A stretch of DNA of 64,000 nucleotides from the NCBI GenBank assembly GCA_018822435.1, contig JAHJKD010000003.1:1208-65207 (forward strand), given 5' to 3'. Of the stretch, positions 7,360 through 22,739 are shown piece by piece (positions within the stretch are counted from its first letter, which is position 1; each line of letters opens with the position of its first letter). The notes beneath the pieces are model-generated. The model was not told where the DNA came from and ran no database searches. It saw only the letters and a list, made by a program, of their open reading frames with translations. The translations under genes and the position numbers were made by a program. Source of the stretch: Patescibacteria group bacterium (GTDB lineage: Bacteria; Patescibacteriota; Patescibacteriia; UBA9570; JAHJKD01).

Positions 7360-7575
7360 TTATTTGGATTTGCTAATGACTTTCTGGACCATCTTTCTCG
7401 TGGTAGTGGGGTTTTCTGTTTTAGTGGTTCGGTAAATCATTTTTTCTTCAAATGCACGAAAATTATCTTGCCGTTCCTGGGAGGAAGATTTCCTATATTT
7501 TTTAAGTAATTTAATGATATTTTGCTTGCTCATATATTTAAAGTATAGCAAAAATACTGAAAAAGTCAATTTCAA
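7360..7575 (-). CDS. FicA/VbhA-like antitoxin candidate (true start probably the internal Met at 7533)
   Basis: Small ORF immediately upstream of fic on the same strand. Contains T-T-K-T-E-N, which fits the Fic inhibitory helix motif (S/T)xxxE(G/N) that class I antitoxins supply in trans. Confidence 0.45.
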   Translation of the reverse strand: MKLTFSVFLLYFKYMSKQNIIKLLKKYRKSSSQERQDNFRAFEEKMIYRTTKTENPTTTRKMVQKVISKSK

Positions 7576-7596
7576 AAATTAAAATAAAAAGAAATA

Positions 7597-7658
7597 AAAT
7601 ATGGGTGAAGTGAGGAGGAGGTACGACGACGAACGGAACCGCATACACGCTGTTAAAC
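7597..7658. repeat. attC-like half-site E (conserved core, right arm and end box)
   Basis: AATATGGGTGAAG...GAACCGCATACACGC-T-GTTAAAC. Its terminal box GTTAAAC is the exact reverse complement of box GTTTAAC at 8241..8247, across the def cassette. Confidence 0.5.
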
Positions 7659-7673
7659 GAAGTCAAGAAAAAT

Positions 7674-8219: not shown

Positions 8220-8240
8220 AGAAAGATTTTTCTCGATTTT

Positions 8241-8334
8241 GTTTAACGTTCCTGGCTATGCGATGTTGCGACCGAAGGGAGCAATATGGGTGAGCTCTCT
8301 CGAAAGAGAGCGAACCGCATAGCCAGTGTTATGT
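8241..8334. repeat. attC-like structured repeat D
   Basis: GTTTAAC-GTTC-CTGGCTATGCG-ATGTT ... AATATGGGTGAG-CTCTCTCGAAAGAGAG-CGAACC-GCATAGCCAG-T-GTTATGT. The 11-bp arms CTGGCTATGCG and CGCATAGCCAG are perfect complements. End boxes fit RYYYAAC and GTTRRRY. Confidence 0.6.
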
Positions 8335-8382
8335 GTTGTAATTAAATTCAGCGAGCGAAGCGAGCTATATTATTGGGGTAAT

Positions 8383-9201
8383 TTATTCTTCGAAAATTTT
8401 TTCAAAGAATTTAACACGAGATTGTTTTGGATTGGGTAATAACATAATTTCTCTTAGATTTTGTATTTTACCATCTCTGATGAGTTCGGATAATATATCT
8501 AATACGGTAGAATTCTGGCCAAATATAACTCCGCCCGGCTTACATACTCTAACCATTTCTTCCATGAGGGCATAGTTATAATCTGATTCCGGTGGAGTAC
8601 CCTGCTTGGGACGAATGATAGTGTCGTCCATTCCATTGATCACCAAATTAGCTGAATCAGACGGTGCCGTGGCAAGAGTTAATAGCACATCGTCATTGAT
8701 GTAGTAACCATTATCTAAATTCGGCATTCTGATGGATTCTGGATTTGCTGGCGGGAGTGTGTGTTTGGCCTTAGCATTTTTTGAATCAATACCGATATAT
8801 TGACTTGCTCCAAATTCTTTGACTATGTTGCCAATAGAAAAATTCGCATCTTGTAAGACTCTTTCACCACAACCTAAGTCAATTAAGATTTGTCCATTTA
8901 GCTTTTGCTGTAGATATTCTTTAATTTTTTGTCGGACTTCTGGCGACGATTCCCCATAGGGACGACTCTCTTCGTCACCCAATCCTGCCCAGTAGTCAGC
9001 GAACTCGGTTTGATAACCTCCAAATTCTGTGTGCTCAATTATCTTGGTATATATAATGAGTCTGAGCTTTTCATCAAAATTTTCATCTTTATTCCAGTCC
9101 TCAGCTTTGCTAAGAGGCGGAATTAGATTTTGGATACGGAAAAAATTTCCGATATCAAATTGACTTTCTTGTTCTCTTCTTGGTCCTCTTTCAATGCTCA
9201 T
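8383..9201 (-). CDS. Class I SAM-dependent methyltransferase (orphan, substrate unknown)
   Basis: Motif I ILIDLGCGE (hh[DE]hGxGxG) and post-I CKPGGVIFG. No adjacent restriction partner. Confidence 0.6.
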   Translation of the reverse strand: MSIERGPRREQESQFDIGNFFRIQNLIPPLSKAEDWNKDENFDEKLRLIIYTKIIEHTEFGGYQTEFADYWAGLGDEESRPYGESSPEVRQKIKEYLQQKLNGQILIDLGCGERVLQDANFSIGNIVKEFGASQYIGIDSKNAKAKHTLPPANPESIRMPNLDNGYYINDDVLLTLATAPSDSANLVINGMDDTIIRPKQGTPPESDYNYALMEEMVRVCKPGGVIFGQNSTVLDILSELIRDGKIQNLREIMLLPNPKQSRVKFFEKIFEE

Positions 9202-9269
9202 ATTTCAAATAATAAATTGCCCCAATAATATACTTTTCTGCGACAGCAGAAAAGGAATTTAATTATTAC

Positions 9270-9396
9270 ACATAACGTTCCTGCGTATGCGATGTTTGCC
9301 AGTGGTATAATTGCACGAAGTGCTTACCACTGGCAAATATGGGTGGAGGCTTGCGGAGGTACGGAGCAAGCCGTAACCGCATACGCAGTGTTAGCT
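9270..9396. repeat. attC-like structured repeat A
   Basis: ACATAAC-GTTC-CTGCGTATGCG-ATGTT-[hairpin GCCAGTGGTA..TACCACTGGC]-AATATGGGTGGAGG-[hairpin GCTTGC..GCAAGC]-CGTAAC-CGCATACGCAG-T-GTTAGCT. Arms are perfectly complementary. The left box is the reverse complement of D's right box. The right box is the reverse complement of B's left box. Confidence 0.65.
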
Positions 9397-9460
9397 GATG
9401 TATTCCTTTTCTTTTCCGACGATAGTCGGTTGTTTTAAAAATTTTCAAATTTCTTTTTCC

Positions 9461-9592
9461 GTTTTGGGTGGTGGGCAGAGGGGAATTAAAGGGGTGAATG
9501 CCCGCCACCCAAAACACCTATTTCTGGTTTGAGGGAGGGGCAAGAGGGGAACAAAAGGGGTGAATTGCCCCGACCGAAAACTCTCTATTCTA
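9461..9592. repeat. Two tandem ~60-bp G-rich hairpin repeat units
   Basis: Unit 1 is GGGTGGTGGGC-AGAGGGGAATTAAAGGGGTGAAT-GCCCGCCACCC-AAAACACCTATTTCT. Unit 2 is GAGGGAGGGGC-AAGAGGGGAACAAAAGGGGTGAATT-GCCCC... The conserved core AGAGGGGAAnnAAAGGGGTGAAT is enclosed by a stem in each unit. Confidence 0.5.
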
Positions 9593-10334
9593 CTTGTCCA
9601 ATCTCTTTTCTGTATAAACAGTAGTCACAATCTTTGTCTGCCTTTGGTATTTTGTCATTTTCCAAGCACTTCTTGATATCTTTTAATGTTTTCTCTACCC
9701 AATCGTCACTTCCGATGTATTCAATAAGGTGAATATCAAATTCTAGTTTTGCATCAAAGGCTTTTTCATCTGGTCGTCCTGTGCAGTATACAAAATAACC
9801 TGTATTTGACATTTTGAGACCGTTTTGGCGTAAGAGCCACTGATATACTTCCATTTGCCTCTTATAGCCGTCCTGCCAGTCTTTATCCAGCTCTGTGACA
9901 GCTTCTGATTTTGCAGTAGCCTTGTAGTCTACAACAATGTATTCCTTTGTTTTTGGATCAAGCCACAAATCATCAATTGCTCCGCTGACGATAAAACCTG
10001 TTGGCTTGTGTGTGCACTCAACGCCTTTAAAGTTTTCTCTCCAAATATCTAGCGATTCGTGGGCTATAGGAATAGCATTAATGCCGTATTGTTTTTGTAT
10101 GGCGTGTTGTTCGCCGTTTGCTCGGTGTGCGTCAAATTCTGTTTTTAGGAGGTTGTCTACCGCGCTATTGAGTGAAAATGGATATCCGGGCGGTCGTTTC
10201 AATCCAAGTTTGTTATCCAAATAAAAACATTTTGGACATTGCTGGAATAAATCTATTTTTGAGCGTGAAAGACGCCAGCGTTTTCCGCCGTAGTTCCAGT
10301 CTGCTTTTCGTGGGATTGAGTAGTAGTCGGACAT
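9585..10334 (-). CDS. PD-(D/E)XK nuclease family protein with four Cys (Cas4/RecB-nuclease-like fold)
   Basis: Motif GAIDDLWLD...EYIVVDYKAT (D ... [D/E]xK). Cys pairs CPKC near the N-terminus and CDYC near the C-terminus suggest a metal or Fe-S site. Confidence 0.5.
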   Translation of the reverse strand: MSDYYSIPRKADWNYGGKRWRLSRSKIDLFQQCPKCFYLDNKLGLKRPPGYPFSLNSAVDNLLKTEFDAHRANGEQHAIQKQYGINAIPIAHESLDIWRENFKGVECTHKPTGFIVSGAIDDLWLDPKTKEYIVVDYKATAKSEAVTELDKDWQDGYKRQMEVYQWLLRQNGLKMSNTGYFVYCTGRPDEKAFDAKLEFDIHLIEYIGSDDWVEKTLKDIKKCLENDKIPKADKDCDYCLYRKEIGQVE

Positions 10335-10364
10335 GAAATTTAATTATTAATTAATATTTATTCA

Positions 10365-11576
10365 TCAAATCAGTTTCTTGGCCTTGCGATACATTTTTTT
10401 ATATGAATTTTCATTCACTTTCCTCAAAAACAATTTAAGGTCATTTTTTGCAATGATTTTATCTCCAAAGTAATACGATAATATCCCACTTCCATAAAGC
10501 AAGGCTGGTTCTTTATTTTTTTGGTATTCATTATTCAAAAATTCTACTACCTCAAGTGGATTAAATCCCAGTCTTTCAACTGGAATTGAAACTAACTTCT
10601 CATAACATTTAAAAGCACTTTTATAATTTTTCTCTAATATCTTAAAAAAGGCTAAATCAACAATTGTAAGCGTAGAGCTGGGGTATTTTTGTTGAAGTTC
10701 AGTTACGACTTTTTGAGCTTCTGCAATTTTTCCTTGTTTATACAAAAATGTAGCTAAATTTGTTAGTGCAAAATGATTATTCACATCGAGTTTCAAAATT
10801 TTATTACAAAATTCAATGCCTTTATTAAAATCTTTTTTATTTAAACCAAATTCAACAACTAAAATTGTATAATCATCAATAAGGTGGATAGCTGTGCTTT
10901 GTATTAAATCATCATTCCTTTTAGCTAGACTGTTATACAAACGTTCTAATAGAGCGATACTCTTACCAATTTTTCCATAAATCTTTAGTGAAAGCGCTAT
11001 TGTATATATTGATAAATCGAAGATATTGTTTGAAACGATTTGAATATCCTCAAATGAGTTATGTTCGATAATGTTCCAGTAATTTTTTCGTGCCATTCTC
11101 GACCTTAAATCTGCCAAAATCATTTTTCCTATTCTCTTTTCCTTATCATCTGGATGACCAAACGTAAAACTTAAATTTAATTTATTTATGTTGTTTCCAT
11201 CTTTTTTTAGGTTATCAACTGTGAAATCTCCCCATATAATCAAATCAATGTCTTTTTTATTTCTAAATTTTTCTGCTTCTTCCTGATTTTTAAATTTTTT
11301 AATATCTGAAAAATCTTGAACAACTACATATTTATCTAAATCTTGTTCTTTTAGGACTTGATTTATGTTTTTCTTTATTTGTTTGAAATAACTTCCAGAG
11401 TTCAAACCTTCATCAAATTCTATAGAAAGAGCGATGTTAAAATTAGCTGGAAACCATTGGAGTTTTCTTGCTCTGAGCCAATTATATAATTGCTTACGAT
11501 AAGTCCAACAGGCAGTCCCCAAGCCCCCTATTATTAGTAATATCAGCCCACTTATTATAGATTCAGTAATTTCCAT
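10365..11576 (-). CDS. Membrane-anchored protein with a C-terminal TPR-like repeat domain (unknown function)
   Basis: N-terminal TM helix (IISGLILLIIGGLGTA). Central domain without known motifs. C-terminal helical repeats of ~34 aa (ALTNLATFLYKQGKIAEAQKVV, AFFKILEKNYKSAFKCYEKLV). Confidence 0.45.
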   Translation of the reverse strand: MEITESIISGLILLIIGGLGTACWTYRKQLYNWLRARKLQWFPANFNIALSIEFDEGLNSGSYFKQIKKNINQVLKEQDLDKYVVVQDFSDIKKFKNQEEAEKFRNKKDIDLIIWGDFTVDNLKKDGNNINKLNLSFTFGHPDDKEKRIGKMILADLRSRMARKNYWNIIEHNSFEDIQIVSNNIFDLSIYTIALSLKIYGKIGKSIALLERLYNSLAKRNDDLIQSTAIHLIDDYTILVVEFGLNKKDFNKGIEFCNKILKLDVNNHFALTNLATFLYKQGKIAEAQKVVTELQQKYPSSTLTIVDLAFFKILEKNYKSAFKCYEKLVSIPVERLGFNPLEVVEFLNNEYQKNKEPALLYGSGILSYYFGDKIIAKNDLKLFLRKVNENSYKKMYRKAKKLI

Positions 11577-11631
11577 AATTTATTTTCATTACATTTTTCG
11601 AATATATTGAATTGTTAAAACCAAAAATATA

Positions 11632-12879
11632 TCATTTTACCAATTCACCACGAAAAGCTTTCCGGAACAGTGATTGTTGAATTTTATCAGTACGACTTTT
11701 AGCTTCTTTATATATATTTCTGGCTTCATTGACTTTACTTTTTATCATAGTTAGACGGTCAACAATCTTTTCTTGCTCCTCAATCGGCGGTAATGCTATT
11801 TGATATGTTTTAATATAATCAGTAGGAACACGAGCTTGACCCGCCGTCCCCGTCATATGTTGTTGCGCAATATGCCTAAAATAATCACTTCTTAAAATTG
11901 AATAAATGAATTTTGCATTTAGTCTGTCTGAGGGTCTAATGACATGAAATTCAGTAGTCCCAAACCCAATTCCATTAACCAAGTTATTAGCAATCGCTGA
12001 TTTACCATTTTCCATACAAGGTGTGATTTTTGCAAACAAGACATCGCCATTCTTGAAATAAGTGTAACCTTTTCGTACTTTTCCAATTTTTCTTATTTCA
12101 GGTGTTTCAATTTTCCCTGTATGCTCGTTTACTGCAGCCATTGGCACAAAACTAACATCTGTATCATCAGAAATATCTTTGACTTCGCTTTTTTTGGGAT
12201 TTATTTCAGCAATATCTTGTAATTCGACCATTTCCCAGCCTTCAGGTAGTACACTTTCATCATCTGGAATAAGCTTATGGAGTGCTGAAGACATTACGTT
12301 GGCTAAACGTATTTCAGCTTCAAAAAGTAATGACGTTGATTTTGTTAAAATACTTTTTGACTCGTTAAGTTTCATTAAAATCTCTTTTTGATTTGGAATT
12401 GGCGGAAGTGGAATTCGAAGATCTTTAATTATCGTTTGGCTTATATTTGATTGCGCCCCACCAAAACCCTTATCAATTAGGTTATCTTTTTCATTTATAA
12501 GATAAATTTTTAAAAAATCCTTTAAGATTTTACTTTCATCTGGAAAGAATGCACAAACGGCTTGGTTTGTTGTAGCTTCTATGCCAAGTTCAGCTGTTTG
12601 ACCAATGTTTGCTCCGTACATAGCCATTAAAAAAGTTCCTTTGGGTAGAATCTTTACGTTACTTGATTTTAAAGCATCTTTTGTGATTTTTTCTTCTGTT
12701 TCAAAAATTATATTTTCTTTTAATTCACCTGATTTTACCCAAGAAATTTTACCATTTTTATAAAATTCTTTATTGTTTCTACTTGGAGTTCCACCACTGG
12801 TTGTCTTACAAACAGTTTTTAGTTCTACCATTTTCCAGCCAGCAGGAAGTTCTATTTCATTATTTTTCATAATATACAT
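11632..12879 (-). CDS. hsdS: Type I restriction-modification specificity subunit HsdS
   Basis: Two target-recognition halves, each ending in the conserved motif LPPIxxQxxI (LPPIPNQKEIL and LPPIEEQEKIV), plus coiled-coil spacers. Confidence 0.8.
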   Translation of the reverse strand: MYIMKNNEIELPAGWKMVELKTVCKTTSGGTPSRNNKEFYKNGKISWVKSGELKENIIFETEEKITKDALKSSNVKILPKGTFLMAMYGANIGQTAELGIEATTNQAVCAFFPDESKILKDFLKIYLINEKDNLIDKGFGGAQSNISQTIIKDLRIPLPPIPNQKEILMKLNESKSILTKSTSLLFEAEIRLANVMSSALHKLIPDDESVLPEGWEMVELQDIAEINPKKSEVKDISDDTDVSFVPMAAVNEHTGKIETPEIRKIGKVRKGYTYFKNGDVLFAKITPCMENGKSAIANNLVNGIGFGTTEFHVIRPSDRLNAKFIYSILRSDYFRHIAQQHMTGTAGQARVPTDYIKTYQIALPPIEEQEKIVDRLTMIKSKVNEARNIYKEAKSRTDKIQQSLFRKAFRGELVK

Positions 12880-12885
12880 AGTTAA

Positions 12886-14244
12886 TTATCCCAATTCCTT
12901 TTGTAAATCTTCTAATTTATCTATCGCTTCTTTTAAAAAGTTTACACTTTCTTCAATTAAAACATTTGGCTCAGGAAGATTTGAGGGGTCATCGAAACTT
13001 TCATCTTTAAGCCATTTTAAATCTAAATTAAAATTTCTTTTTTTCAAATCTTCAAATAGGAATTTCTTCCATCGTTCTGTTTCCTGGTCTCTATTTTGAT
13101 ATTTCTCAAGAAAATCATTAAAGTATTCAGATTTTAGCGGTTTCCTTTTGGAAATTTTTTCTACATTTGTACGCAAGTCGTAAAACCACAAATTTTCTGT
13201 TTTCTCTCCTGTCTTTTCAAAAAAGATAACATTGGTTTTAACCCCAGGCGTATATGGTGTGAATGTTCCGTTTGGTAATCTAATTATGGTATGTAGATTA
13301 AAATTTTCTAAAAGCATTTTTCGTATTTTTGTCCCTGCTCCTCCTTCAAATAGAACGTTGTCTGGCATTACCATCGCACACCGACCACCATTTTTTAAAA
13401 TACTCATACAATGTTGTAGAAAGTTTAGTTGACGACTTTTGGTTACAACAAAAAAATCATCCCTACTATAAGAAACGCTGTTCGTTTTTTTGAAGGGCGG
13501 ATTTGTAAGAATTACATCATACCCATCGCCATACTTTTCTTTCAAAGAATCACCATAGGTAATTTGACCTTCTATTTCATGTAGATAAAGATTCATTATA
13601 CAAAGTCTTCTCGTTTCCCAAACAAATTCACCTCCTGAAATGGCTTCTTTTTGCAAAAAATCATATTCCTCTCTTTTTAAGCTCTTTTTTTCTTTTTCAA
13701 GCTCTTTAAAAATATACTCAAATGCTTCAATTAAGAATCCCCCCGTACCACAGGCAGGGTCATGGATTGTTTCATTGTGTTTAGGGTTTATACATTTAAC
13801 GATTGTTCGAATCAGTTCACGAGGGGTAAAATACTGACCAGCGCCTTTCTGTTCTGCTGCATATTTTGCGAGCAACCCTTCGTAAGCTGCTCCTTTAACA
13901 TCTATATCAATAGAAGACCACTCTTCATCGTCCAAAGCTCCAATTACTTTGTTTAGGCTAACAGGATTTCTAAATTTATTGTTTGATTGAGCAAAAATAT
14001 CTCCAAGCACTCCGGCTTCTTTTCCAAGATTCTTCAAAACTACTTCATAATGCTCAATAAGAGCCATGCCACTATGATTCATTAAAGTTTGCCAACTGTA
14101 TTCACTTGGTATACGAATACCTTTTTCATCAGCCATTTTGAGAAACAGCAAATATGTTAATTGTTCTATATAGTCACCATAATGCATACCTTCATCGTGA
14201 AGATTTCCTGCTAATGACCAAAGTTTTTGTACGATATCTGACAT
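12886..14244 (-). CDS. hsdM: Type I R-M N6-adenine DNA methyltransferase HsdM
   Basis: Motif IV NPPF (ILTNPPFKK). SAM-binding region DPACGTGGFL. N-terminal HsdM helical domain. Confidence 0.85.
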   Translation of the reverse strand: MSDIVQKLWSLAGNLHDEGMHYGDYIEQLTYLLFLKMADEKGIRIPSEYSWQTLMNHSGMALIEHYEVVLKNLGKEAGVLGDIFAQSNNKFRNPVSLNKVIGALDDEEWSSIDIDVKGAAYEGLLAKYAAEQKGAGQYFTPRELIRTIVKCINPKHNETIHDPACGTGGFLIEAFEYIFKELEKEKKSLKREEYDFLQKEAISGGEFVWETRRLCIMNLYLHEIEGQITYGDSLKEKYGDGYDVILTNPPFKKTNSVSYSRDDFFVVTKSRQLNFLQHCMSILKNGGRCAMVMPDNVLFEGGAGTKIRKMLLENFNLHTIIRLPNGTFTPYTPGVKTNVIFFEKTGEKTENLWFYDLRTNVEKISKRKPLKSEYFNDFLEKYQNRDQETERWKKFLFEDLKKRNFNLDLKWLKDESFDDPSNLPEPNVLIEESVNFLKEAIDKLEDLQKELG

Positions 14245-14257
14245 AGTATTTTAGTTA

Positions 14258-16939
14258 TTACATTGGTTGTAAAATATGTTCATTTATACGCTCTAGGGTT
14301 TCATTCAATTTACCTTCAAAATCCCTATTTGCTTTTGAAAAGCCACCCTTTCTACTAAAAGGCAATGAACGAAAATCGCTAGACTCTACAATGATATTTG
14401 TTTCAAGGTGGATTTTTATATCATCAAGCCATTGTTGCTGTGGCTCAGTCTCGCCCTCAAGTAACATTATCTTAAATGCTTTTTCTATACGTTGTCGTGG
14501 TGTATATAATTTTGTATTCCACATGGCGTGTGAAACAAATGCATATAAGTCAGCTGGGGTTTTAGTATGAGTTGCAATTTCATTTGCGCGTCTTAAATTA
14601 TCTTCTGTGAACCGTTCAGGTGTTTTTGCTAATTCATTTTTAAGCTCCTTGAAATGTTTCATTGAAAATTGTCTTGGTGAATTTAAAAGTATTTTAAGTG
14701 CCTCAATTGTCTTAGCATTTTGCTTAATATATTGCTTAAATGTTTCTAAGTAGTCTTTTGGTTTTAATTCTCTTCCGTCTGTAGTTCGAAAAATATATTC
14801 GGAGGTTGCAATTTCTGCCTTTTTTTCTTTAGAAATTATGAAACCTTGCCTGTAACGAGGGTAATTTTGTAAAAATTCAAGAAAATTAGGGTCTGACATT
14901 TGATTTAGAGCTTCTTCTTCTTGCTGAGCAAGCCTATCTTGAATACTTAATGAGAATTCTTGCAAGTTACCATCTGGTACTGCAAAGCGATTTTCAAGTT
15001 CTTTCCTCCCTTCTTCTGTTATATTCTTATCTACTCTTTGCAACTTCCTAGAAAGAGATTTCACGTTATCTTCAATATCTTTTCCATCACGAATTTCTTT
15101 AATGATTTCACCATAAGTCTTTCCAGCTTTCGTAATTGGTTGCATTATATCTCCGCCTTGCTCCTTCATGAAATCTATTACGCCAATAGCATCAAATACT
15201 GTGAAATGAGTTTTGTTAATATCTTTACAAAGCCGTGTGCCTCTACCAATCATTTGTTCGTAAAGAATTCGTGAACGAATAGGTCTTGCAATAAGCAAAT
15301 TTTCAATTGCTGGCACATCAACACCAGTAGAAAGCATATCAACGGTGACAACTATCCGTGGTTTTTTTAGATTTCTAAATTTACGAATTAGCTCATTTGG
15401 CTTATCGACGGTATAAGTTATTTTTTGAACAACATCATCACCTTCACCTAATTCTTTTCTAAATAGCTTTACCAATTGATTTGCATGTCGCTCATTAACA
15501 CTAAAAACTAAAGTTTTCTCATCTTTTCCAATATATTTACAGACTTCTTTAACAATTTTTCGGTTTCTATCTTCAACAGTCACTTTTCTCTCTAATCCGC
15601 TTGTATCAATATGCAAATCATCATCAAGAAGCTCATCTTTATGTTTTTTGGTTTTCCATTCCTCTATTGTAACTCCTTCTCCTTTTGAAAAAGATACTTC
15701 TTCTTTCATATCTATATCTGTTCGTATTCGTACTGCATCGAAATCTACTAAATATCCATCATCTACTGCCTTTAAATAGCCGTAAGAATACAGATCCTTT
15801 TCATCATGAACATCAAAATATGCTGCTGTGTGAGCTGCAGGCGTAGCAGTCAGTCCAAATTGATGTACATCAAAGTAATCCAAGACATATTTCCATTTAT
15901 TATAAATCGATCGATGGCACTCATCAGATATAATTAAATCAAAAGAATCAATTGGAAAATTCTTGTTATATTCAATTGGACTATCATCCCCGTCAGCCCA
16001 TTCATCTTCTGTTTTAACATCTACACCACTATCTCTGCCTTTAAGCATAGAATACAGTCTTTGTATGGTAGATACATAAACAAATGTATTTGATTTCTTT
16101 CTCTTTTTTAATTGTGATGGCTGTAATACCTCAGCATTATAATCAATTTTTTCACCATCTTCAGGCGTTGGTATCTTGTCACAATAGACAGAATATAAAG
16201 TATCAAATTTATTACCTTTTTCAGGTTCAAATGTTGAAAGAGCCGTTACTGTTTGATCTGCTAAACTTCTTCTATCAACCAAGAATAAAATTCTTTTAAA
16301 ATATCCAGACTTCATTAAATGATACATTAAGGCTGAAGCTGCAAATGTTTTTCCCGTACCAGTTGCCATTGCAATAAGCCCCATTCGTTTATTGTTCAGC
16401 AATCTGTTAACAACATATTCTGCGGCTTCTTTTTGATAAAATCTTAAAGCACGGTCGCCGTAAACAGTTTTAATCTCTTCGTTTTGAAGATACTTTATTG
16501 CGTTATTTTTATCTTCGGAAAGTCTTTCTGTTAAACTTTCTGGTGTATGAAAACCTTCAACTGCTCGACTAAAACTAGGTGATTCTCTTAAATTTTGAAA
16601 CCGTATATCTGTACCATTAGAGCTGTATACAAAAGGCACTTTGTAGCTGCCATACTTAGATTCAAAACCTTCTAAATCTTCTGCGTATCGTAAAGACTGG
16701 GTTAATACGCCATCAATTTGAGTTCCTTCCTTTTTTGCTTCAACTACACCTACAGGTTTACCATCAATTGTAAGTAAGTAATCAGCATCACCTGAGCTTG
16801 TAGGATATTCATAAATAGCCTCACAATCACTCCCTTTGATATCCGTTTTTCGCGAGACAACAGACCAGCCTGCTTTTTCAAGCAGTTTATCAATTTTTTC
16901 TGAACGTGTTTTTGATTCTTTAGGCATATTAAATTTCAT
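14258..16939 (-). CDS. hsdR: Type I restriction enzyme HsdR (helicase/nuclease subunit)
   Basis: Walker A MATGTGKTF and DEAH-box DECH (SDECHRS). N-terminal PD-(D/E)XK-type nuclease region. 893 aa. Confidence 0.85.
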   Translation of the reverse strand: MKFNMPKESKTRSEKIDKLLEKAGWSVVSRKTDIKGSDCEAIYEYPTSSGDADYLLTIDGKPVGVVEAKKEGTQIDGVLTQSLRYAEDLEGFESKYGSYKVPFVYSSNGTDIRFQNLRESPSFSRAVEGFHTPESLTERLSEDKNNAIKYLQNEEIKTVYGDRALRFYQKEAAEYVVNRLLNNKRMGLIAMATGTGKTFAASALMYHLMKSGYFKRILFLVDRRSLADQTVTALSTFEPEKGNKFDTLYSVYCDKIPTPEDGEKIDYNAEVLQPSQLKKRKKSNTFVYVSTIQRLYSMLKGRDSGVDVKTEDEWADGDDSPIEYNKNFPIDSFDLIISDECHRSIYNKWKYVLDYFDVHQFGLTATPAAHTAAYFDVHDEKDLYSYGYLKAVDDGYLVDFDAVRIRTDIDMKEEVSFSKGEGVTIEEWKTKKHKDELLDDDLHIDTSGLERKVTVEDRNRKIVKEVCKYIGKDEKTLVFSVNERHANQLVKLFRKELGEGDDVVQKITYTVDKPNELIRKFRNLKKPRIVVTVDMLSTGVDVPAIENLLIARPIRSRILYEQMIGRGTRLCKDINKTHFTVFDAIGVIDFMKEQGGDIMQPITKAGKTYGEIIKEIRDGKDIEDNVKSLSRKLQRVDKNITEEGRKELENRFAVPDGNLQEFSLSIQDRLAQQEEEALNQMSDPNFLEFLQNYPRYRQGFIISKEKKAEIATSEYIFRTTDGRELKPKDYLETFKQYIKQNAKTIEALKILLNSPRQFSMKHFKELKNELAKTPERFTEDNLRRANEIATHTKTPADLYAFVSHAMWNTKLYTPRQRIEKAFKIMLLEGETEPQQQWLDDIKIHLETNIIVESSDFRSLPFSRKGGFSKANRDFEGKLNETLERINEHILQPM

Positions 16940-16957
16940 TACATTGTTCTGATTGTT

Positions 16958-17173
16958 CTAACCCTGATTTTCAGGTGAACTTTTTTTCAAGAATGTTATT
17001 ACGTCTTTCTTGTGATAGCGTCTTGGCTGCGTATCACTTGGACGAAAGGCTTTAAGTAGTCCTTTATCGTCCCAACGTCTTAATGTCATAAGAGAAACTT
17101 GTAGTATATCTGCAACTTCCCGAAGGGATAGTATTTCCGGCATATCCTTTAATTGGTCTACTAGGTTTTTCAT
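16958..17173 (-). CDS. Small HTH DNA-binding protein (MerR/excisionase-type helix-turn-helix)
   Basis: 71 aa. LSLREVADILQVSLMTLRRWDDKGLL is a typical excisionase/MerR-family HTH. Located between the GmrSD-like gene and hsdR. Confidence 0.5.
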   Translation of the reverse strand: MKNLVDQLKDMPEILSLREVADILQVSLMTLRRWDDKGLLKAFRPSDTQPRRYHKKDVITFLKKSSPENQG

Positions 17174-17183
17174 AACAATAAAA

Positions 17184-19250
17184 TTAAGAAGAATGCTTAT
17201 TAAGTGATTGCTGTATTAAGAAAATGGCATAATCAATCTCCTCAGGCTCAGATAAGCTTACTTCTACATCTCCATTTCCCCAGCGTCCTAAATCCGTAAC
17301 ATCTTTTGCCATTCCTTTTGGGTCATCAAGTTCCTCAAATTTCATATTTAGAGAAAGTCTTAATCTGGTTTTTTGAGGGACAACATCTACAAAGTTTGTT
17401 GAAGTTTTGAAAGCTATGTAGAGCTTCATACATTCTTCTCTAATCTCTGGATTTAAAAGCATGATTCGCTCTTTTAATAGCTCGTAGAGAGTGAACATGT
17501 CGCCTTGTAGGTATTCATAATCTTCAATGTTGTAATCAGCTTCTTTTTCTGGTTGTAAGTCTTTTTTGTACTTCTCCAATATCTCATCAGATAAAACTGG
17601 AGCTTTCCAGATTTGCAGGGCTTCTTTGCTTAGAGTTTCGGCTCGTTGTTTAATCGTTTCTTCATTCCAAGTATCAAGGTCTATTAAATCTTTATTTAAA
17701 CGCACAGAGCTTTCTTTAAATCCTTTCTGCATATCTCTTTTTTCTGTGAACGATTTATTACTCATATCAGAGTTGTACCCCGTAAGAGTAAGATTTCCGA
17801 TAGTGTGCAAATACTCACTTTGGATTCTCTGGAAGTCCTCTCCAAGTGCTTCCTTCCATTGAGGGGTTAAGGTTTGAGGCATGATATGCTCAACGCTCAA
17901 ATCATCAAGATTTACTCGCTCTTTATTGTTGTGGTGTTCAATTTTCTCGAAGAGATAACCGCTATTTCTGAAATTGTAAACATCTTTCTTGGCTAGCTCC
18001 TCCTTAAATTCACTATCCTTAGGAAGTCGGTGATAGCTCTCTCGTAGTATGAAATTAGCCATGAGGCTTTCAATGTAATTCTCTGGCTCGATTTCTTTGT
18101 AGAGGTTCGCAAAGGTCTTATTAAGGGAATTGGTAGGAATACCACAAATAGCACGTCTAAAGACGTAGCATTCAACCAGTTTGAGAACTTCAATGAAATC
18201 TTCCTTTGTGATTATGTTGTTTTCGTAATCATCATAAACACTCATCAGGAATGGGTAAGCTACCTCAACCTTTAGAGTTCTGATGTTGTTAATTATCTCG
18301 TTTATTTGATTGTCTTCTTCTTTGTTAAATTCAAGTTTGGCGTAGTACTTTGAAAACTTGTGGACGTCTGCCACTACCTCTTCAATTTCTCTTCCGAAAA
18401 TATACTGCTTGTATGTTGTGTAAACTGAATCTAGGGTTGGGATTGAGCCTGTTTTGATAGTAAGGAAGCCACGCATGAAGTAGTCAAACTTTTCTTCATT
18501 TTGACCTTCGATAAAAAGGCTCTCCATTGGTAGCCAATACTTGGTGTAAATTTCTTTCTGATGGTCTGGCTCAAGCCCCATGAGAACATAATTCCTAATA
18601 AGGTCAGATTGAGACAAATCCAGTCCGGTAGAATTAAGACTTTCAAAAATAAGCTGAGGGTTGTCCTCTCTATCTAATGCAATATCAACAATGATAAGTT
18701 TTCGTATTCCTTTGAATAAATCATCAAGGTTAATGTTGCCTTTTTCTATTTGAGTAACAAAAAATAGGTAATTTTGGTAAATACGTTCGATTTCTTCATC
18801 TTTTGATATTTCTTCACCATCAACCAATTTTCTAAATACTTCTTTGTCATGTCGTGTAAGGCTTAGTTTAATTCGTTTATCATCTTTACTGTACTCATTC
18901 ACAAGGAAAGAGTTCATGATTTGACGTTTTGTAACCTCGTATTTCTCCTCCGATTTCTTCAAGGCATTCACCATTGCCAAGAAAAGCAATGACAGGGTTG
19001 TCAGTCTCTGCTGTCCATCAATTACAAGAGCCTGATTTGTACCTGCGATGTTATACATGCCAGCGGCTACATAAACGACCGAACCTATAAAGTGAGCAGG
19101 AACTGTATCATCAGTCGAAACTCGCAAAATATCATTCCAAAGTTGCTTACATTGGATTAAATTCCAGCTATAGGTACGCTGATAAATGGGAATAATGAAC
19201 TGCTGTTCTTTATTGATGAACGATATAAAATTGGTTTCTAATGCCTTCAT
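17184..19250 (-). CDS. GmrSD-like type IV (modification-dependent) restriction endonuclease, DUF262 plus DUF1524/HNH
   Basis: N-terminal DUF262 motifs YQRTYSW and IDGQQRLTTL (ParB/Srx-like NTPase). C-terminal His-Me finger LSVEHIMPQ (DUF1524). 688 aa. Confidence 0.75.
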   Translation of the reverse strand: MKALETNFISFINKEQQFIIPIYQRTYSWNLIQCKQLWNDILRVSTDDTVPAHFIGSVVYVAAGMYNIAGTNQALVIDGQQRLTTLSLLFLAMVNALKKSEEKYEVTKRQIMNSFLVNEYSKDDKRIKLSLTRHDKEVFRKLVDGEEISKDEEIERIYQNYLFFVTQIEKGNINLDDLFKGIRKLIIVDIALDREDNPQLIFESLNSTGLDLSQSDLIRNYVLMGLEPDHQKEIYTKYWLPMESLFIEGQNEEKFDYFMRGFLTIKTGSIPTLDSVYTTYKQYIFGREIEEVVADVHKFSKYYAKLEFNKEEDNQINEIINNIRTLKVEVAYPFLMSVYDDYENNIITKEDFIEVLKLVECYVFRRAICGIPTNSLNKTFANLYKEIEPENYIESLMANFILRESYHRLPKDSEFKEELAKKDVYNFRNSGYLFEKIEHHNNKERVNLDDLSVEHIMPQTLTPQWKEALGEDFQRIQSEYLHTIGNLTLTGYNSDMSNKSFTEKRDMQKGFKESSVRLNKDLIDLDTWNEETIKQRAETLSKEALQIWKAPVLSDEILEKYKKDLQPEKEADYNIEDYEYLQGDMFTLYELLKERIMLLNPEIREECMKLYIAFKTSTNFVDVVPQKTRLRLSLNMKFEELDDPKGMAKDVTDLGRWGNGDVEVSLSEPEEIDYAIFLIQQSLNKHSS

Positions 19251-19369
19251 AATTGAAATTTAATTAATTTTCTCAGGTTATACAAAGTATTACAAAGTTA
19301 GTATAACAATTCTAGTGTTTTTCACAAGAGAATGAAGGGAAGAGAAGAGCTGTATATTATAAAGAGTTG

Positions 19370-19500
19370 TTCCGCCGATAGGCGGAACTCCATATATTCC
19401 CCTCATTAAAAAAGCGTTTCCGTAGCGTAGCGGAGGAAACACCATATTTCCCCTTATAAATAAATCGTTTTCGGAGCAAAGCGGAGAAAACACCTTATAT
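19370..19500. repeat. Three tandem ~45-bp hairpin repeat units
   Basis: Units are GTTCCGCC-GATA-GGCGGAAC-TCCATATATTCCCCTCATT, GTTTCC-GTAGCGTAGC-GGAGGAAAC-ACCATATTTCCCCTTAT and GTTTTC-GGAGCAAAGCGGAG-AAAAC-ACCTTATATCCACTC. Hairpin stems differ between units but the tail nCCATATnTCCCCT is conserved. Confidence 0.5.
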
Positions 19501-19582
19501 CCACTCTAAAAATAAAGAAAAAGAAATTTGAAAATTTTTTAAAACAATTGGGCGATAGCCCAGAAAAGAAAAGGAATATTTC

Positions 19583-19697
19583 AGCTAACGTTTCGGCATA
19601 TACGATGTTGCACGGGTGTATAATAGCCGACAGGCTACACCCGTGCAATATGGGCGGAGCGACCATCGGGAGCGTAGCCGTATATGCCGTGTTATAT
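19583..19697. repeat. attC-like structured repeat B
   Basis: AGCTAAC-GTTT-CGGCATATACG-ATGTT-[hairpin GCACGGGTGTA..TACACCCGTGC]-AATATGGGCGGAGC-...-CGTATATGCCG-T-GTTATAT. Arms are perfect complements and covary relative to A and D. The left box is the reverse complement of A's right box. The right box is the reverse complement of C's left box. Confidence 0.65.
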
Positions 19698-19721
19698 GAT
19701 GTAATTTATCAAAATTTTTTA

Positions 19722-20870
19722 CTATTCTATTTTTAATATTTTGCAATCCACGAGATATGGCGACTTGAAATCTGTCATTTCGCCTGCTTTTTTGCCTGGA
19801 ACAGGAAATAATCTTGCTGATAATGGCTTATCTAACTTAATTGCTAAAGTCGCCATATCGAGAAGTGTCGCTTCAATCTTTTCTGCTGGCGTGTCGCCTG
19901 GAATTGGAACTGTGTCTAAACCAACACCGCAAACTGCTGAATATAAAAGCAGGTTAGTAATGCCGTAGGTAGCTTCATTTGCTCTCGTTGCAAGTCCAAG
20001 GTCTTCGCATACTGGGAGCATAAGACCAGAATAGCCACATATCTTAACTGACAAACCTTTGAGTACACGAGTGACCAAAGCAGAAATTGTAAGTGTTCCT
20101 TGACTTCCAAATTTGCCAAAGCCGAGTTTTTCAAAAGCAAAAGCAATACTTTCATGCTCCTCAAGTCCTGGATTTAGTGAAGCATCAATACCATTATAGC
20201 CAATGCCAAAGTCTTTTGAAATCTGTTGAGCTAAATCGGCGACTTTCTTAGTTTCTTCTTCAAATATTGCTTTTAGGTTTTGCTCTGCTTCTATGAGATT
20301 GCTTGATTTTGAAAATGCCTTCACGGCTAAGTCTCCGCACTCCAAGCCAATACCGAAAGCGGTTTCTCCCTCGTGAAAACCGGTAGGAAAGAACGGAATA
20401 CCTGGCTTACAATTTGCGGAGGCGCAGAATCTAAAATTGCCGTAACCGTTTTCGGTTTCCTCTGCAATTCGTTTGATAACTTGAGCTGCTATTTTGGCAT
20501 TTTCAAAATCTATTCCACTTTCCTTGTCGCCGATTTTGGCGGAGCATGAAATTTGAGAGGTAACTTTATTAAATTCAGGAATGAGTTTAATTTTATCTGG
20601 CGTTTTTGCGTAGCCCATATTGAAAAAACTTACGTCGAGGCTTTGGCAAATTTGTTCTATTTTTTGAATCGCACTTACAATTTCTGCGTCTGAAAGACTA
20701 CCAAGATATTCTTCCCATGAATTAGTGGCTATTCTGGTCGTCTGCACTTCATAACCTGCTTTTTCAAACACTTCCTTAGCTTTGCGATTGAATTCAGCAG
20801 TTTGTCTTATTTGATCTTCAATATCAGGTGATTGAAGCGACACGCCAGTTGTTATTGTTCTTATTTTCAT
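19722..20870 (-). CDS. DUF711/UPF0210-family protein
   Basis: N-terminus MKIRTITTGVSL resembles the conserved DIRTITMGISL start of UPF0210 proteins. 382 aa, shorter than typical family members. Assignment is from memory of the family signature. Confidence 0.45.
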   Translation of the reverse strand: MKIRTITTGVSLQSPDIEDQIRQTAEFNRKAKEVFEKAGYEVQTTRIATNSWEEYLGSLSDAEIVSAIQKIEQICQSLDVSFFNMGYAKTPDKIKLIPEFNKVTSQISCSAKIGDKESGIDFENAKIAAQVIKRIAEETENGYGNFRFCASANCKPGIPFFPTGFHEGETAFGIGLECGDLAVKAFSKSSNLIEAEQNLKAIFEEETKKVADLAQQISKDFGIGYNGIDASLNPGLEEHESIAFAFEKLGFGKFGSQGTLTISALVTRVLKGLSVKICGYSGLMLPVCEDLGLATRANEATYGITNLLLYSAVCGVGLDTVPIPGDTPAEKIEATLLDMATLAIKLDKPLSARLFPVPGKKAGEMTDFKSPYLVDCKILKIE

Positions 20871-20912
20871 GGTGCGAAATATTAAAAATTAAAAATTTTG
20901 ATAAATTATTTC

Positions 20913-21001
20913 ATATAACGTTTCGGCATAGCCGAAGTTTGACGGGTGTAAAATACGCCGAAGGTGTACACCCGTCAAATTTGGGTGAGCGAGCGTTAAA
21001 A
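20913..21001. repeat. attC-like structured repeat C (variant)
   Basis: ATATAAC-GTTTCGGCATAGCCGAAGTT-[hairpin TGACGGGTGTA..TACACCCGTCA]-AATTTGGGTGAGCGAGC-GTTAAAA. The left arm self-pairs here (TTCGGC-ATA-GCCGAA). Confidence 0.5.
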
Positions 21002-21021
21002 ATAAAATTGTTTTTATTCGT

Positions 21022-21462
21022 TTAGAATAATAACTTGTATGTTACTCCTTCTTTCCATTGTGGATTTTCCCATTCTTTGAAATCAAAATTTTCACATAGA
21101 TTTCGCATAGGAGAATTTTTAAAAGCGGTTTCTGTAACAACTCCTGTAGCTTTTTTGTTTTTTGCGTGTTCAATACATCTACCCATCAGTTTTTTTCCTA
21201 TACCAAGCTTTTGAAAATATGGATCAACGAGTATTTCACGGATGAAAAAGAAATTGTCTTCCCACCAACCTCTGTCTATAGAACAAAAAGCCACAAATTC
21301 AGCTCCTTTCTTTGCGATAAGATAAAGGCTATCTTTTAGCTGAAAGTGTTTTTTTAGTGAATCTATTGTGGCTTTGTCGTAGGTATAATTGAAAGATTTT
21401 TTATTACGTAAAAAATCAATTTCTTTTTCATTTTTCATCTCTGTAATTTTGATTTCATCCAT
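21022..21462 (-). CDS. GNAT-family N-acetyltransferase
   Basis: Acetyl-CoA-binding motif A QKLGIGKKLMGRCIEHAK (Q/RxxGxG/A). About 145 aa, the typical size for a single GNAT domain. Confidence 0.75.
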   Translation of the reverse strand: MDEIKITEMKNEKEIDFLRNKKSFNYTYDKATIDSLKKHFQLKDSLYLIAKKGAEFVAFCSIDRGWWEDNFFFIREILVDPYFQKLGIGKKLMGRCIEHAKNKKATGVVTETAFKNSPMRNLCENFDFKEWENPQWKEGVTYKLLF

Positions 21463-21483
21463 AGAATTAAAACAATTTTATTT

Positions 21484-21513
21484 AGCTCGCGAACCGGCTA
21501 TGCCGTGTTAGCT
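21484..21513. repeat. Truncated attC-like site G (arm plus end box only)
   Basis: AGCTCGCGAACCGGCTATGCCGT-GTTAGCT. Resembles only the right arms of A, D and E. Box GTTAGCT is the reverse complement of AGCTAAC at 21783..21789. Confidence 0.45.
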
Positions 21514-21521
21514 GAAGTTAA

Positions 21522-21752
21522 TTATTTTTCCCATTTTAAGTATGCCCTAATATTTAAGGCAATTAGGATTATGCAAACAATTACTCCAGGCCAGATTTGA
21601 GCCATGTAGTTGACTATGATCCACGCTATATTCGCAGCAATATAGATTATGAACGCATATCTTTTTTTATTGCCAATTAGGTAAACAAAAAGGAGTGAGC
21701 CTGTCATAGCTATCCAGTCTATACCATAGTAATTGCCAATTATATGTTCCAT
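21522..21752 (-). CDS. Small hypothetical membrane protein (2 TM), first cassette next to the attI-like region
   Basis: 76 aa with two hydrophobic helices. No assignable family. Confidence 0.35.
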   Translation of the reverse strand: MEHIIGNYYGIDWIAMTGSLLFVYLIGNKKRYAFIIYIAANIAWIIVNYMAQIWPGVIVCIILIALNIRAYLKWEK

Positions 21753-21917
21753 ATAGAAAAATAATTAATTTCAGCTAACTGGTTATTATACGAAGTGTTT
21801 TCATATAATATGCATGATTTAGGGTGTTATGCGGCTATTGCGGAGAAGGGAAGATTGCTGTAATATTTTAAATAACATCCTAAAAACATCTTCTAATATA
21901 CTTAAAATTCATCAATT
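21753..21917. promoter_or_regulatory. attI-like region and divergent promoter zone between the recombinase gene and the first cassette
   Basis: Contains box AGCTAAC (21783..21789) complementary to the first cassette's GTTAGCT, a TCATATAA element resembling the starts of repeats C and F, and a GTTATGC box (21836..21842). AT-rich with several -10-like hexamers. Promoter positions were not resolved. Confidence 0.4.
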
Positions 21918-22739
21918 ATGCAAGATTACCTCAAAAAGGCAAAGGAAGAGCTTTTGGTTCGGAATTATAGCCAAAAGACTATTAAAAGTTATACTTCTTG
22001 TTTGCGGAACTATTTTGAATATTTAGATTCTGTTGGTTTTGATTTGGGAGTGGTGGACAGGGAAGTGATAAAAAAATTCTTATTAAAGAAAAAGGGGAAA
22101 GGGTATTCACCACAAACTTTGAATCTTTTTCTCAATGCGATTAAATTTTTTTATAGAGAAATTATTAAATCACAGGAGGAAATTGATTTGAAGTTTTCCA
22201 AACGGTCGCAGAAATTGCCGGTGGTGCTATCGCGCAATGAAATCCAGCTCATCCTAGATGAGGTCGCTAATTCCAAACATAAGCTGCTGATCGGGTTGAC
22301 TTATGGGGCAGGCTTAAGGGTGAGTGAAGTCATAAATTTGAAGGTCAGGGACATTGACTTGGAGAGAGGAGTAATTGCTGTCCGAGCCGGGAAAGGGGAT
22401 AAGGATAGGATCACGGTTTTGCCTGAAAAATTATCGTCTGAAATAATGGCTAGGATAAGGGGAAGGAGTGGGCCGGAGTTTGTTTTTGTCAGTGAACGGG
22501 GCGGACGGTTGACAGCAAGAACAGCACAGAAAGTATTTGAAAATGCTTTGCGGAAGGCAGGGATCCAAAAAGATGCCACTTTTCATTCATTGCGCCATAG
22601 TTTTGCGACTCATTTACTAGAGAGCGGGACGGACATCAGATATGTGCAGACATTGTTGGGACATCGCAATATTCGGACCACGCAAATTTATACCCAGGTG
22701 AGCACGGCTAATATCAGGGCCATTGCCAGCCCGCTATAA
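21918..22739 (+). CDS. Site-specific tyrosine recombinase (XerC/XerD/IntI superfamily), the presumptive cassette integrase
   Basis: C-terminal catalytic region with R (LRVSE), K (GKGDKDR), HxxR (HSLRHSFATHLL), R and Y (HRNIRTTQIYTQV). N-terminal core-binding domain. Only 273 aa, and the segment between the KxxR box and HxLRH is ~58 aa, too short for the IntI-specific insertion. Confidence 0.85.
   Translation: MQDYLKKAKEELLVRNYSQKTIKSYTSCLRNYFEYLDSVGFDLGVVDREVIKKFLLKKKGKGYSPQTLNLFLNAIKFFYREIIKSQEEIDLKFSKRSQKLPVVLSRNEIQLILDEVANSKHKLLIGLTYGAGLRVSEVINLKVRDIDLERGVIAVRAGKGDKDRITVLPEKLSSEIMARIRGRSGPEFVFVSERGGRLTARTAQKVFENALRKAGIQKDATFHSLRHSFATHLLESGTDIRYVQTLLGHRNIRTTQIYTQVSTANIRAIASPL

Follow-up and report, generated by a model that had tools for sequence, protein, structure and literature searches.

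Three tandem hairpins of a Patescibacteria contig as probable copies of a conserved boundary module of integron-like cassettes

The present analysis concerns a stretch of 64,000 nucleotides from a Patescibacteria group bacterium (assembly GCA_018822435.1, contig JAHJKD010000003.1, positions 1,208 to 65,207 of the forward strand), referred to here as the window, with positions counted from its first letter. It holds a 10-kb block of genes that are read on the minus strand (9585-19250) and code for a GmrSD protein with DUF5655 (GmrSD_N+GmrSD_C+DUF5655), a HTH_17/MerR-like regulator with a helix-turn-helix (HTH) domain (16958-17173, minus strand), HsdR, HsdM, HsdS, a TPR protein and a PD-(D/E)XK nuclease. 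Upstream of these genes, at 19369-19507, three short hairpins follow one another in tandem, and we consider it about 90% probable that each of them is a copy of a conserved module marking cassette boundaries in an integron-like system.

The cassette of an integron is usually described as consisting of a promoterless gene and an attC site of 60-140 nt. The block is enclosed by two attC-like sites, both on the plus strand, i.e. site A (9271-9397; nhmmer E=1.6e-28), which belongs to the block itself, and site B (19583-19698; nhmmer E=1.2e-24), which belongs to the upstream DUF711 cassette and contributes, through its R box, the initial bases of the 10-kb cassette. Further on, at 21918-22739 of the plus strand, lies the gene of a XerA-like tyrosine recombinase of 273 aa, divergent from the cassette array. 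The co-oriented attC-like sites around the block, together with this divergent recombinase, indicate that the 10-kb block is a single cassette.

The three hairpins constitute the strongest tandem repeat of the window according to Tandem Repeats Finder (19386-19517, 2.5 copies, 79% matches, score 148). A first-pass annotation, made from the letters of the window alone, had described them as tandem units of about 45 bp with covarying stems; the tandem arrangement and the covariation are real, and the period is 51. The hairpins proper lie at 19369-19388, 19416-19440 and 19467-19491, their stems differ by compensated substitutions (T-A to C-G), and all three are present in the minimum-free-energy folds of the region. 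Copy 3 (19467-19507, plus strand; nhmmer E=2.6e-13) represents the canonical form, a hairpin reading GTTTTC GGA GC AAA GC GGA GAAAAC followed by the tail ACCTTATATCCACT, whose interior (GGAGCAAAGCGGA) is found also at another locus of the family described below (L224). Copy 2 (19416-19456, plus strand; nhmmer E=1.2e-14) reads GTTTCC GTA GC GTA GC GGA GGAAAC, followed by the tail ACCATATTTCCCCT, and shows in its outer stem a compensatory T-A to C-G change with respect to the family consensus. Copy 1 (19369-19405, plus strand; nhmmer 19368-19414, E=2.8e-4) is a divergent variant, GTTCCGCC-GATA-GGCGGAAC, which is paired throughout (-14.6 kcal/mol on the plus and -13.7 on the minus strand), carries the tail TCCATATATTCCCCTC / TCCATATATTCCCCT and is seen again at locus L116, in tandem with a canonical unit. 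The conserved CCATAT..CCCC tail is found behind each hairpin, as had been noticed, and it is degenerate in two of them, since CCATATWTCCCCT is perfect in unit 2 and has two mismatches each in units 1 and 3; elsewhere in the window the tail motif does not occur above chance. The window holds 11 hairpins of the GTT..AAC class where 14.7 would be expected; the class is not enriched, hence the repeat is local and not a genome-wide element.

At the opposite end of the cassette lies a second array (9461-9581), composed of two copies of a longer unit on the plus strand. Copy 1 (9461-9515; nhmmer E=3.4e-18) has a 17-bp stem, GTTTTGGGTGGTGGGCA/TGCCCGCCACCCAAAAC, around the conserved loop GAGGGGAATTAAAGGGGTGAA, and copy 2 (9527-9581; nhmmer E=1.9e-16) reads GTTTGAGGGAGGGGCAA..TTGCCCCGACCGAAAAC. 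Just outside both arrays there is a stronger feature, overlooked by the first-pass annotation, namely a terminal inverted repeat of about 75 bp (alignment score 80) whose left arm (9390-9463) starts at the R box GTTAGCT and whose right arm (19514-19589) ends in the R box AGCTAAC. Each arm has its own hairpin, CCGAC-GATA-GTCGG (9416-9429) on the left and GGGC-GATA-GCCC (19549-19562) on the right, and both read GATA on the plus strand although the arms are inverted copies. The inverted repeat sets in precisely at the R boxes (GTTAGC/GCTAAC) of the attC sites on either side, so that the mobile unit is the cassette itself. The earlier proposal of inverted ends of a nested element is thus right in placing the arrays at the two ends of one mobile unit, inside a long terminal inverted repeat, and wrong in that this unit is the integron-like cassette and not an element within it.

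The two arrays had also been thought to resemble each other in inverted orientation. Inside the window the likeness does not go beyond a 9-mer: the inverted pairwise alignment has a score of 18, reached by 34 of 300 shuffles, and a direct-orientation match, AAACACC-TATTTC (13 of 14 match), is slightly better, being reached by 5 of 300; neither alignment is significant. For the window taken alone, this is formally the alignment outcome that the first-pass annotation had named as speaking against its reading. The relationship is recovered when relatives from other genomes are compared, where the motif AGAGGGG(RR)T(A/T)AAGG(GG)TG appears as the long-unit loop on the plus strand and as the short-unit tail on the minus strand. 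The 3' half of long unit copy 2 is partly complementary to the short unit, and the second long-unit subtype ends in CCGAAAAC, complementary to GTTTTCGG at the start of the short unit. From the shared loop and tail motif and from this last complementarity it follows that the cassette-end inverted repeat runs on, degraded, through the arrays, as the first-pass annotation had suspected. In direct orientation both unit types have in common a foot GTTTT(C/G)..(G/C)AAAAC, followed by (A/T)CCTTAT. The long-unit loops, at 9477-9499 and 9543-9565 of the window as well as at L122, L163, L170, L183, L207, L221 and other loci, contain two GGGG runs on the plus strand and come in two forms, a long one (GGGGAATTAAAGGGG) and a short one (GGGGTTAGGGG); intermolecular G-quadruplexes might arise from these runs, or the runs might pair with the CCCC stretches on either side of the short hairpin.

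A metagenome scan was run with a degenerate short-unit pattern in which GTTTTC/GAAAAC was fixed, yielding at least 120 loci, and nhmmer profiles were built from the window and a few relatives. The profiles give at least 149 short units, at least 84 long units and at least 129 attC-like sites. In all of at least 136 loci the elements are co-oriented, with none mixed. On the non-coding strand, wherever the contig reaches far enough, one order is kept: the attC is followed after a median of 72 nt by the long unit, then come the cargo and the short unit, and a median of 74 nt separates the latter from the next attC. The cargo measures 627-10,828 nt (median 2,006, n=63, among the matches listed) and is unrelated between the loci sampled, which include an AAA_15 ATPase, an Mrr-type nuclease, a RadC-D12 methylase fusion, a CAAX protease, a PPDK-like enzyme, an N6 methylase, a DUF6544 protein, a carbamoyltransferase, an ABC transporter and operons that are apparently of restriction-modification type, the latter judged by sequence motifs only. 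Given this fixed place and the unrelated cargo, the short unit is a 5'-boundary module and the long unit a 3'-boundary module, and neither is tied to the GmrSD or the HTH gene.

Concerning copy number, most cassettes among the matches listed have one short and one long unit, and tandem adjacencies are restricted to 5 long-long and 5 short-short cases in the at least 136 loci. Five loci, the window among them, have two long copies, and the two sub-types succeed each other there in one and the same order; two short copies occur at L116, and three in the window only (again among the matches listed). An instructive relative is L013, where a framework of the window type surrounds an ABC transporter gene in place of the defence block. 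It starts with an attC (L013:5890-6016) that matches attC A at about 90% identity, followed by an arm and a single long hairpin (loop AGAGGGGAATTAAAGGGGTGAAT); after the gene come a single short hairpin, GTTTTC..GAAAAC TCCATATTTCCCCTC, the other arm, which bears a GGGGC-GATA-GCCCC hairpin, and lastly GCTAAC. Near-identical attC sites and arms carry different cargo in other genomes. A site near-identical to attC A is present also at L166, downstream of the short unit (oriented position 9448-9505), and the recombinase of L013 is only about 53% identical to that of the window despite the near-identical attC; such near-identical sites in genomes with divergent recombinases suggest a shared cassette pool and recent exchange. 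The GmrSD protein itself was found again on a 10,171-bp contig (GCA_018824665.1, JAHJGD010000053.1), which is the cassette alone, broken inside both arms. Its HsdR is 889 aa long (893 in the window) and its HsdS 412 (415 in the window); the latter difference indicates that the specificity subunit differs between otherwise near-identical cassettes.

The hairpins covary within the family. In 44 unique parsed short hairpins the inner two-pair stem is made up of 80 Watson-Crick pairs, 3 G-T pairs and 5 mismatches, and at its variable pair 30 of the sequences have G-C and 10 have A-T. Evidence for the outer stem was taken from independently found units only, since the metagenome pattern had fixed it; compensated variants are ATTTTC/GAAAAT (at two loci), GTTTCC/GGAAAC, GTTCTC/GAGAAC and the GTTCCGCC/GGCGGAAC stem of copy 1. 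For the long unit RNAalifold predicts 16 pairs, 11 of them with compensatory double changes, around an invariant loop core AGAGGG...GGGGTGAA; since related sequences are not independent, all these covariation counts overstate the number of evolutionary events. Some loci, L015 and L174 among them, carry versions of the short unit with a different, fully paired interior. The short hairpin is 20-33 nt long and its feet are 8-21 nt apart, and this variable length agrees with recognition of a hairpin through its foot, not with a dimer site of fixed spacing on double-stranded DNA. A rigid dimeric operator of the form GTTTTC-N13-GAAAAC on double-stranded DNA was discarded for the spacing of the feet and for the covariation of the interior pairs. 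Also discarded were a small open reading frame (a Shine-Dalgarno-like GAGGGG followed by ATG or GTG), whose start codon is unconserved and whose frame is shifted between 25- and 26-nt hairpins, and a role of the hairpin feet as an integrase L box at attI, the attI sequences after AAC being too variable.

Both unit types are asymmetric with regard to strand. The apical loops of the short unit (GGA, GAA, GATA, GTA or AAA) and its internal loops (G(G/T)A and GGA) all read on the plus strand, which is the non-coding, or bottom, strand of the cassettes; in classical integrons the bottom strand is the recombination substrate. The plus strand is the more stable one for 61 of 68 short hairpins with RNA parameters and for 62 of 68 with DNA parameters, and the mismatches of the long-unit stems, as seen on the plus strand, are purine-purine in about 18 cases against 0 pyrimidine-pyrimidine. 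Rfam 15 yielded no match in the window at gathering scores, and at a permissive level the two end regions gave chance matches only (TD-1, E=0.35; Spot 42, E=0.22). Among viral contigs the long-loop 22-mer had no matches, and the 28 matches of the short-unit 16-mer were taken as chance uninspected and left unused.

The arms are complementary within a cassette. For cassettes of loci outside the window, among the matches listed, the ends of the same cassette have a median local complementarity score of 27 (n=15), compared with 11.5 for the flanks of the same attC (n=13) and 10 for random left-right pairs from different loci. As the same-cassette score is the highest, complementarity is a property of the cassette, whose arms come to adjoin an attC together only after excision and circularisation. 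For the window, the circular junction (19340-19588 joined to 9276-9600) has a predicted fold of -140.6 kcal/mol, against -102.7 and -90.9 kcal/mol for chromosomal contexts of equal length. In this predicted fold the R boxes and arms pair over their whole length, the GATA hairpins face one another, and side branches are formed by long unit 1 and by each of the three short hairpins. Where neighbouring cassettes have common arm types, as at L167:5045-5500, the whole intergenic region is predicted to be one 456-nt hairpin (-115 kcal/mol, z=-13.5). The attC-like sites themselves (attC A, attC B and that of L167) are predicted to fold with R and L stems, an asymmetric unpaired spacer (about 3-4 versus 0-1 nt) and a branched centre, and in the minimum-free-energy folds of all three the L stem is fully paired, with no bulged (extrahelical) bases, a feature known from prediction only.

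The rest of the array is organised as in an integron, with co-oriented imperfect inverted repeats bearing RYYYAAC...GTTRRRY ends between the genes, beside the divergent tyrosine recombinase. Further attC-like sites of the window lie at 6696/7597-7658 (split), 8242-8335 and 20914-20997/21487-21515 (split), every site being on the plus strand and the genes on the minus strand, and a putative attI crossover, GCTAAC, is located at 21776-21781. In all five cassettes of the window the start is complementary to the inner R box of the own attC and well beyond it, over 24-75 bp; the other four (7656-8243, 8335-9273, 19691-20917 and 21510-21781) have cassette-specific terminal inverted repeats that reach 24-45 bp beyond the R boxes. 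In cassette 8335-9273 a pair of non-complementary hairpins (AGCGAGCGAAGCGAGCT and CTTTTCTGC-GACA-GCAGAAAAG) occupies corresponding arm positions. The two split sites (20913-21515 and 6696-7658) are interrupted by genes inside their central loops, a GNAT acetyltransferase (21004-21486) in one and a Fic protein with a 71-aa open reading frame (about 6721-7590) in the other, and each insert has its own short inverted-repeat arms, which prolong the interrupted stem. The first cassette next to the putative attI (21522-21752) holds only a truncated gene, coding for a 76-aa C-terminal fragment of a nicotinamide mononucleotide transporter.

The recombinase scores 229 bits against the XerA model NF040815 (cutoff 220) and 216.7 against the integron-integrase model TIGR02249 (cutoff 265), the latter in two pieces. 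The IntI-specific domain is absent: residues 176-200 match residues 177-244 of VchIntIA (2a3v), with about 43 residues missing, and the closest solved relatives are an archaeal XerC-like recombinase (PDB 4a8e) and XerA (5hxy). Relatives at 46-62% identity come mostly from metagenome-assembled genomes of Patescibacteria (candidate phyla radiation, CPR), many with attC-like arrays upstream. In sibling contigs the housekeeping genes nadA, nadB, nadC, gatB and carAB lie downstream of the recombinase, which places the array on the chromosome. No alternative cassette order was found in sibling contigs with an identical recombinase, these contigs breaking inside the array.

The short unit also has a defined place with respect to transcription signals. 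Behind the hairpin, as read on the coding strand, comes GATTTATTTATAA at 70% conservation or more. Among the matches listed, 25 of the 31 canonical members of the family and 19 of the remaining 53 have a TANNNT/TAYAAT box at +25/+26, so that the hairpin abuts the -35 region of a cassette-borne promoter. For the defence operon of the window a sigma-70-type promoter is predicted, by consensus scan only, at 19300-19327 of the minus strand (TTGTGA-16-TG-TATACT); on the coding strand it comes about 40 nt after short unit 1. Six loci (L137, L208, L117, L162, L142 and L146) share the conserved -10 box at +26 and a conserved 5' untranslated region (..ACTTAACTTGGA..ATG), after which follow genes with differing starts; judging from these sequences, the 5' module looks like a portable promoter with a leader. 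In a simple scan, unit 1 (GTTCCGCCTATCGGCGGAAC AACTCTTTAT) and the arm hairpin beside it (TGGGCTATCGCCCA ATTGTTTTAA) are terminator-like on the minus strand and the mirror arm hairpin on the plus strand, the arm hairpins thus facing into the cassette from both sides. As coding-strand RNA, the canonical hairpin has only -3.3 kcal/mol; it consists of six pairs, most of them A-U, an internal loop of 3x3 pyrimidines and two more pairs. Unit 1 is stable enough for a Rho-independent terminator (-13.7 kcal/mol), while units 2 and 3 and the family consensus are not (-3.3 to -5.7 kcal/mol, coding strand); a terminator role is therefore plausible for unit 1 and the arm hairpins and not for the family module as such.

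Sedentary chromosomal integrons are among the known systems that come closest to what is described here. They share the co-oriented imperfect palindromes (..AAC / GTT..) beside a divergent tyrosine recombinase, a cargo that points away from it, a cassette start complementary to its own inner R box, and structural features favouring the non-coding strand. They differ in several respects: the start-end complementarity, about 7 bp for a classical attC, is 24-75 bp or more here; conserved short and long hairpin modules flank the attC; many cassettes bring a promoter of their own and hold more than one gene, with sizes up to 10.8 kb; the L stems are predicted to have no extrahelical bases; and the recombinase is devoid of the IntI-specific insertion. 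The system appears to work like an integron, and it lacks one defining feature of integron integrases. With the archaeal XerA proteins it has in common a recombinase above the cutoff of NF040815, a family named 'site-specific tyrosine recombinase/integron integrase' by NCBI; the archaeal-integron paper that was checked makes no mention of Patescibacteria, CPR or flanking modules, and the literature searched offered no description of Patescibacteria integron cassette boundaries or of such modules.

Other likenesses are partial. DR1 and DR2 of attI1 are accessory recombinase-binding sites beside the core site, and the short units recall them as extra short sites whose hairpin feet hold R-box-like GTT/AAC triplets; unlike them, the candidate sites described here are hairpins of one strand, lie on the cassette side and not at attI, and are conserved across genomes. 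Unit 1 and the arm hairpins resemble intrinsic terminators in that a T-rich tract comes after the hairpin on the coding strand, but the canonical hairpin is too weak as RNA and conserved in its interior sequence, not in its pairing alone. Origins of the ssoA type and promoters of the Frpo type rely on orientation-specific hairpins with stable purine-rich loops that act on one DNA strand. The short units are likewise orientation-specific purine-loop hairpins of one strand, and their interior TAGCG(T/A/G), present in 19416-19440 and in many family members, may resemble the CS-6 motif (TAGCGT) of ssoA-type origins; there is no replication protein or rolling-circle context here. The palindromes known as REP (repetitive extragenic palindromic) and BIME (bacterial interspersed mosaic element) sequences are also short conserved hairpins that may stand in tandem, but they are scattered over the genome, whereas the short units appear at one place in the 64-kb window and elsewhere, among the matches listed, always co-oriented with attC.

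In the interpretation that we favour, the three hairpins would be a local triplication of the short unit, within a cassette that comprises, on the bottom strand, attC, an arm of about 70 nt, one or two long units with their invariant G-rich loop, the cargo, one to three short units with a C-rich tail and a second arm of about 70 nt, which repeats the first in inverted form. Excision and circularisation would bring the complementary ends together, at a predicted junction of ..TTTCAGCTAA (19588) with C-GTTCCTGCG (9276). In the circle these ends would lengthen the attC stem by 75 bp or more, with the short and long hairpins branching from the stem base. Folded in vivo on the bottom strand, the hairpins would act as accessory single-stranded DNA in the service of recombination, either steadying the fold of that strand or promoting cruciform extrusion from the double-stranded circle, and would give the attC its polarity, additional recombinase contacts, or both. 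All this would take place with a XerA-like recombinase devoid of the IntI-specific domain and with attC stems predicted to be free of extrahelical bases, and the module would stand directly upstream of the cassette's own promoter on the coding strand. That module, arms and long unit form part of an enlarged single-strand recombination site in this way is a model to which we give slightly less than an even chance.

Several points weigh against this interpretation. The folding is a matter of prediction, and the model requires a hypothetical excised intermediate, as ends 10 kb apart cannot pair in the chromosome. In the long-unit stems G-T and A-C pairs number about 7 each, so that the wobble pairs pick no strand. 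The retrieval pattern fixed GTTTTC/GAAAAC, and the conservation of the outer stem is overestimated in consequence. Part of the conservation of the module is explained by transcription signals, as GATTTATTTATAA and the -10 box at +26 show. Cassette-specific complementarity could be a historical by-product of the way cassettes are made and not a selected function, and the triplication in the window may be neutral, most relatives having one copy.

The main rival, which we consider less likely than the recombination model, sees in the array an insulator and promoter module of the coding strand: the arm and short hairpins with their T-rich tracts would stop read-through from upstream, the sequence after the last hairpin would be the -35 region, and triplication would strengthen the insulation of a toxic restriction operon. 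It draws on the terminator-like unit 1 and arm hairpins, on the conserved GATTTATTTATAA and the box at +25/+26, on the promoter-like TTGTGA-16-TATACT behind the array, and on the many cargos that are restriction-modification or defence genes in need of autonomous control. With -3.3 kcal/mol as RNA, however, the canonical hairpin is too weak for an intrinsic terminator, the purine-rich interior and the GNA loops that are conserved in it belong to the opposite strand, and a terminator leaves unexplained both the invariant 19-23-nt loop of the long unit and the cassette-specific complementarity of the ends. The recombination and insulator roles are not mutually exclusive. As to the number of copies, one may suffice, the three short and two long ones of the window being neutral slippage amplification without added function. 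We find this improbable: tandem pairs are indeed rare (5 long-long and 5 short-short in at least 136 loci) and the tails of units 1 and 3 degenerate, but all three copies stay foldable by way of compensatory changes, the unit-1 variant recurs beside a canonical unit in L116, and the two-copy long arrays of five loci keep the same sub-type order.

The feet GTTTTC/GAAAAC and GTTTTG/CAAAAC hold the GTT/AAC triplets of R boxes, and multiple sites inverted at two ends recall Tn7 or Mu, which might point to degenerate or secondary recombination sites, or to a transposon-like element that is nested in the integron and has the units as its subterminal binding sites. The first-pass annotation had raised degenerate sites as well as a nested element; the former idea is not supported in that form, since the units are a conserved family of their own, fixed about 70 nt from each attC, and not decayed attC sites. 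The triplet order in the units, GTT..AAC, is opposite to the AAC..GTT of attC, and in the conserved order of elements the units never stand in for attC. A nested transposon agrees poorly with an inverted repeat that starts at the attC R boxes, which makes the cassette the unit, and no transposase was found among the annotated cargo genes of the window or in the cargo sampled at ten other loci; taken together, this explanation is very improbable. Least credible of all is that the repeats serve as an operator array for the HTH_17/MerR-like regulator of the cassette, as had also been put forward, or as small-RNA or type III antitoxin-like repeats controlling GmrSD. Such a role is suggested by tandem repeats upstream of a nuclease gene and by an HTH gene in the operon, and it is largely refuted by the cassettes of other loci, where the same units flank sampled cargo with neither an HTH domain nor GmrSD (ABC transporter, PPDK, CAAX protease, restriction-modification genes and others). 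An operator is further disfavoured by the hairpin length, which varies between 20 and 33 nt, and an antitoxin by the predicted promoter downstream of the repeats, which leaves them outside the operon transcript, and by the lack of any match to Rfam families; in addition, unlike ToxI-like repeats, the units precede unrelated genes and are mostly single.

A bolder extension of the recombination model, which we regard as speculative and rather unlikely, would have the modules and terminal inverted repeats replace the logic of the IntI domain and the extrahelical bases, supplying strand choice, orientation and synapsis, with the modules as a scaffold into which unrelated genes are inserted. The 5' module of such a scaffold would consist of hairpin, promoter and 5' untranslated region, the 3' module of long hairpin and attC, and the tandem hairpins of the window, with their intact linkers, would be unoccupied slots.

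How cassettes are created and how folded sites are recognised are open questions of integron biology, and the family may bear on both. It is a large family of cassettes, found mostly in Patescibacteria genomes and apparently undescribed, in which conserved and structured modules at the 5' and 3' sides and long inverted repeats specific to each cassette surround unrelated cargo, and its partner recombinase is devoid of the domain that is considered to define integron integrases. Should the modules take part in recombination, they would represent a second way to build a single-strand recombination site, and if they are a common scaffold for new cargo, they would offer a concrete handle on the origin of cassettes. 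On the practical side, the modules are conserved markers by which such cassettes, many of them with restriction-modification or defence genes, may be recognised in metagenomes where attC models alone are weak.

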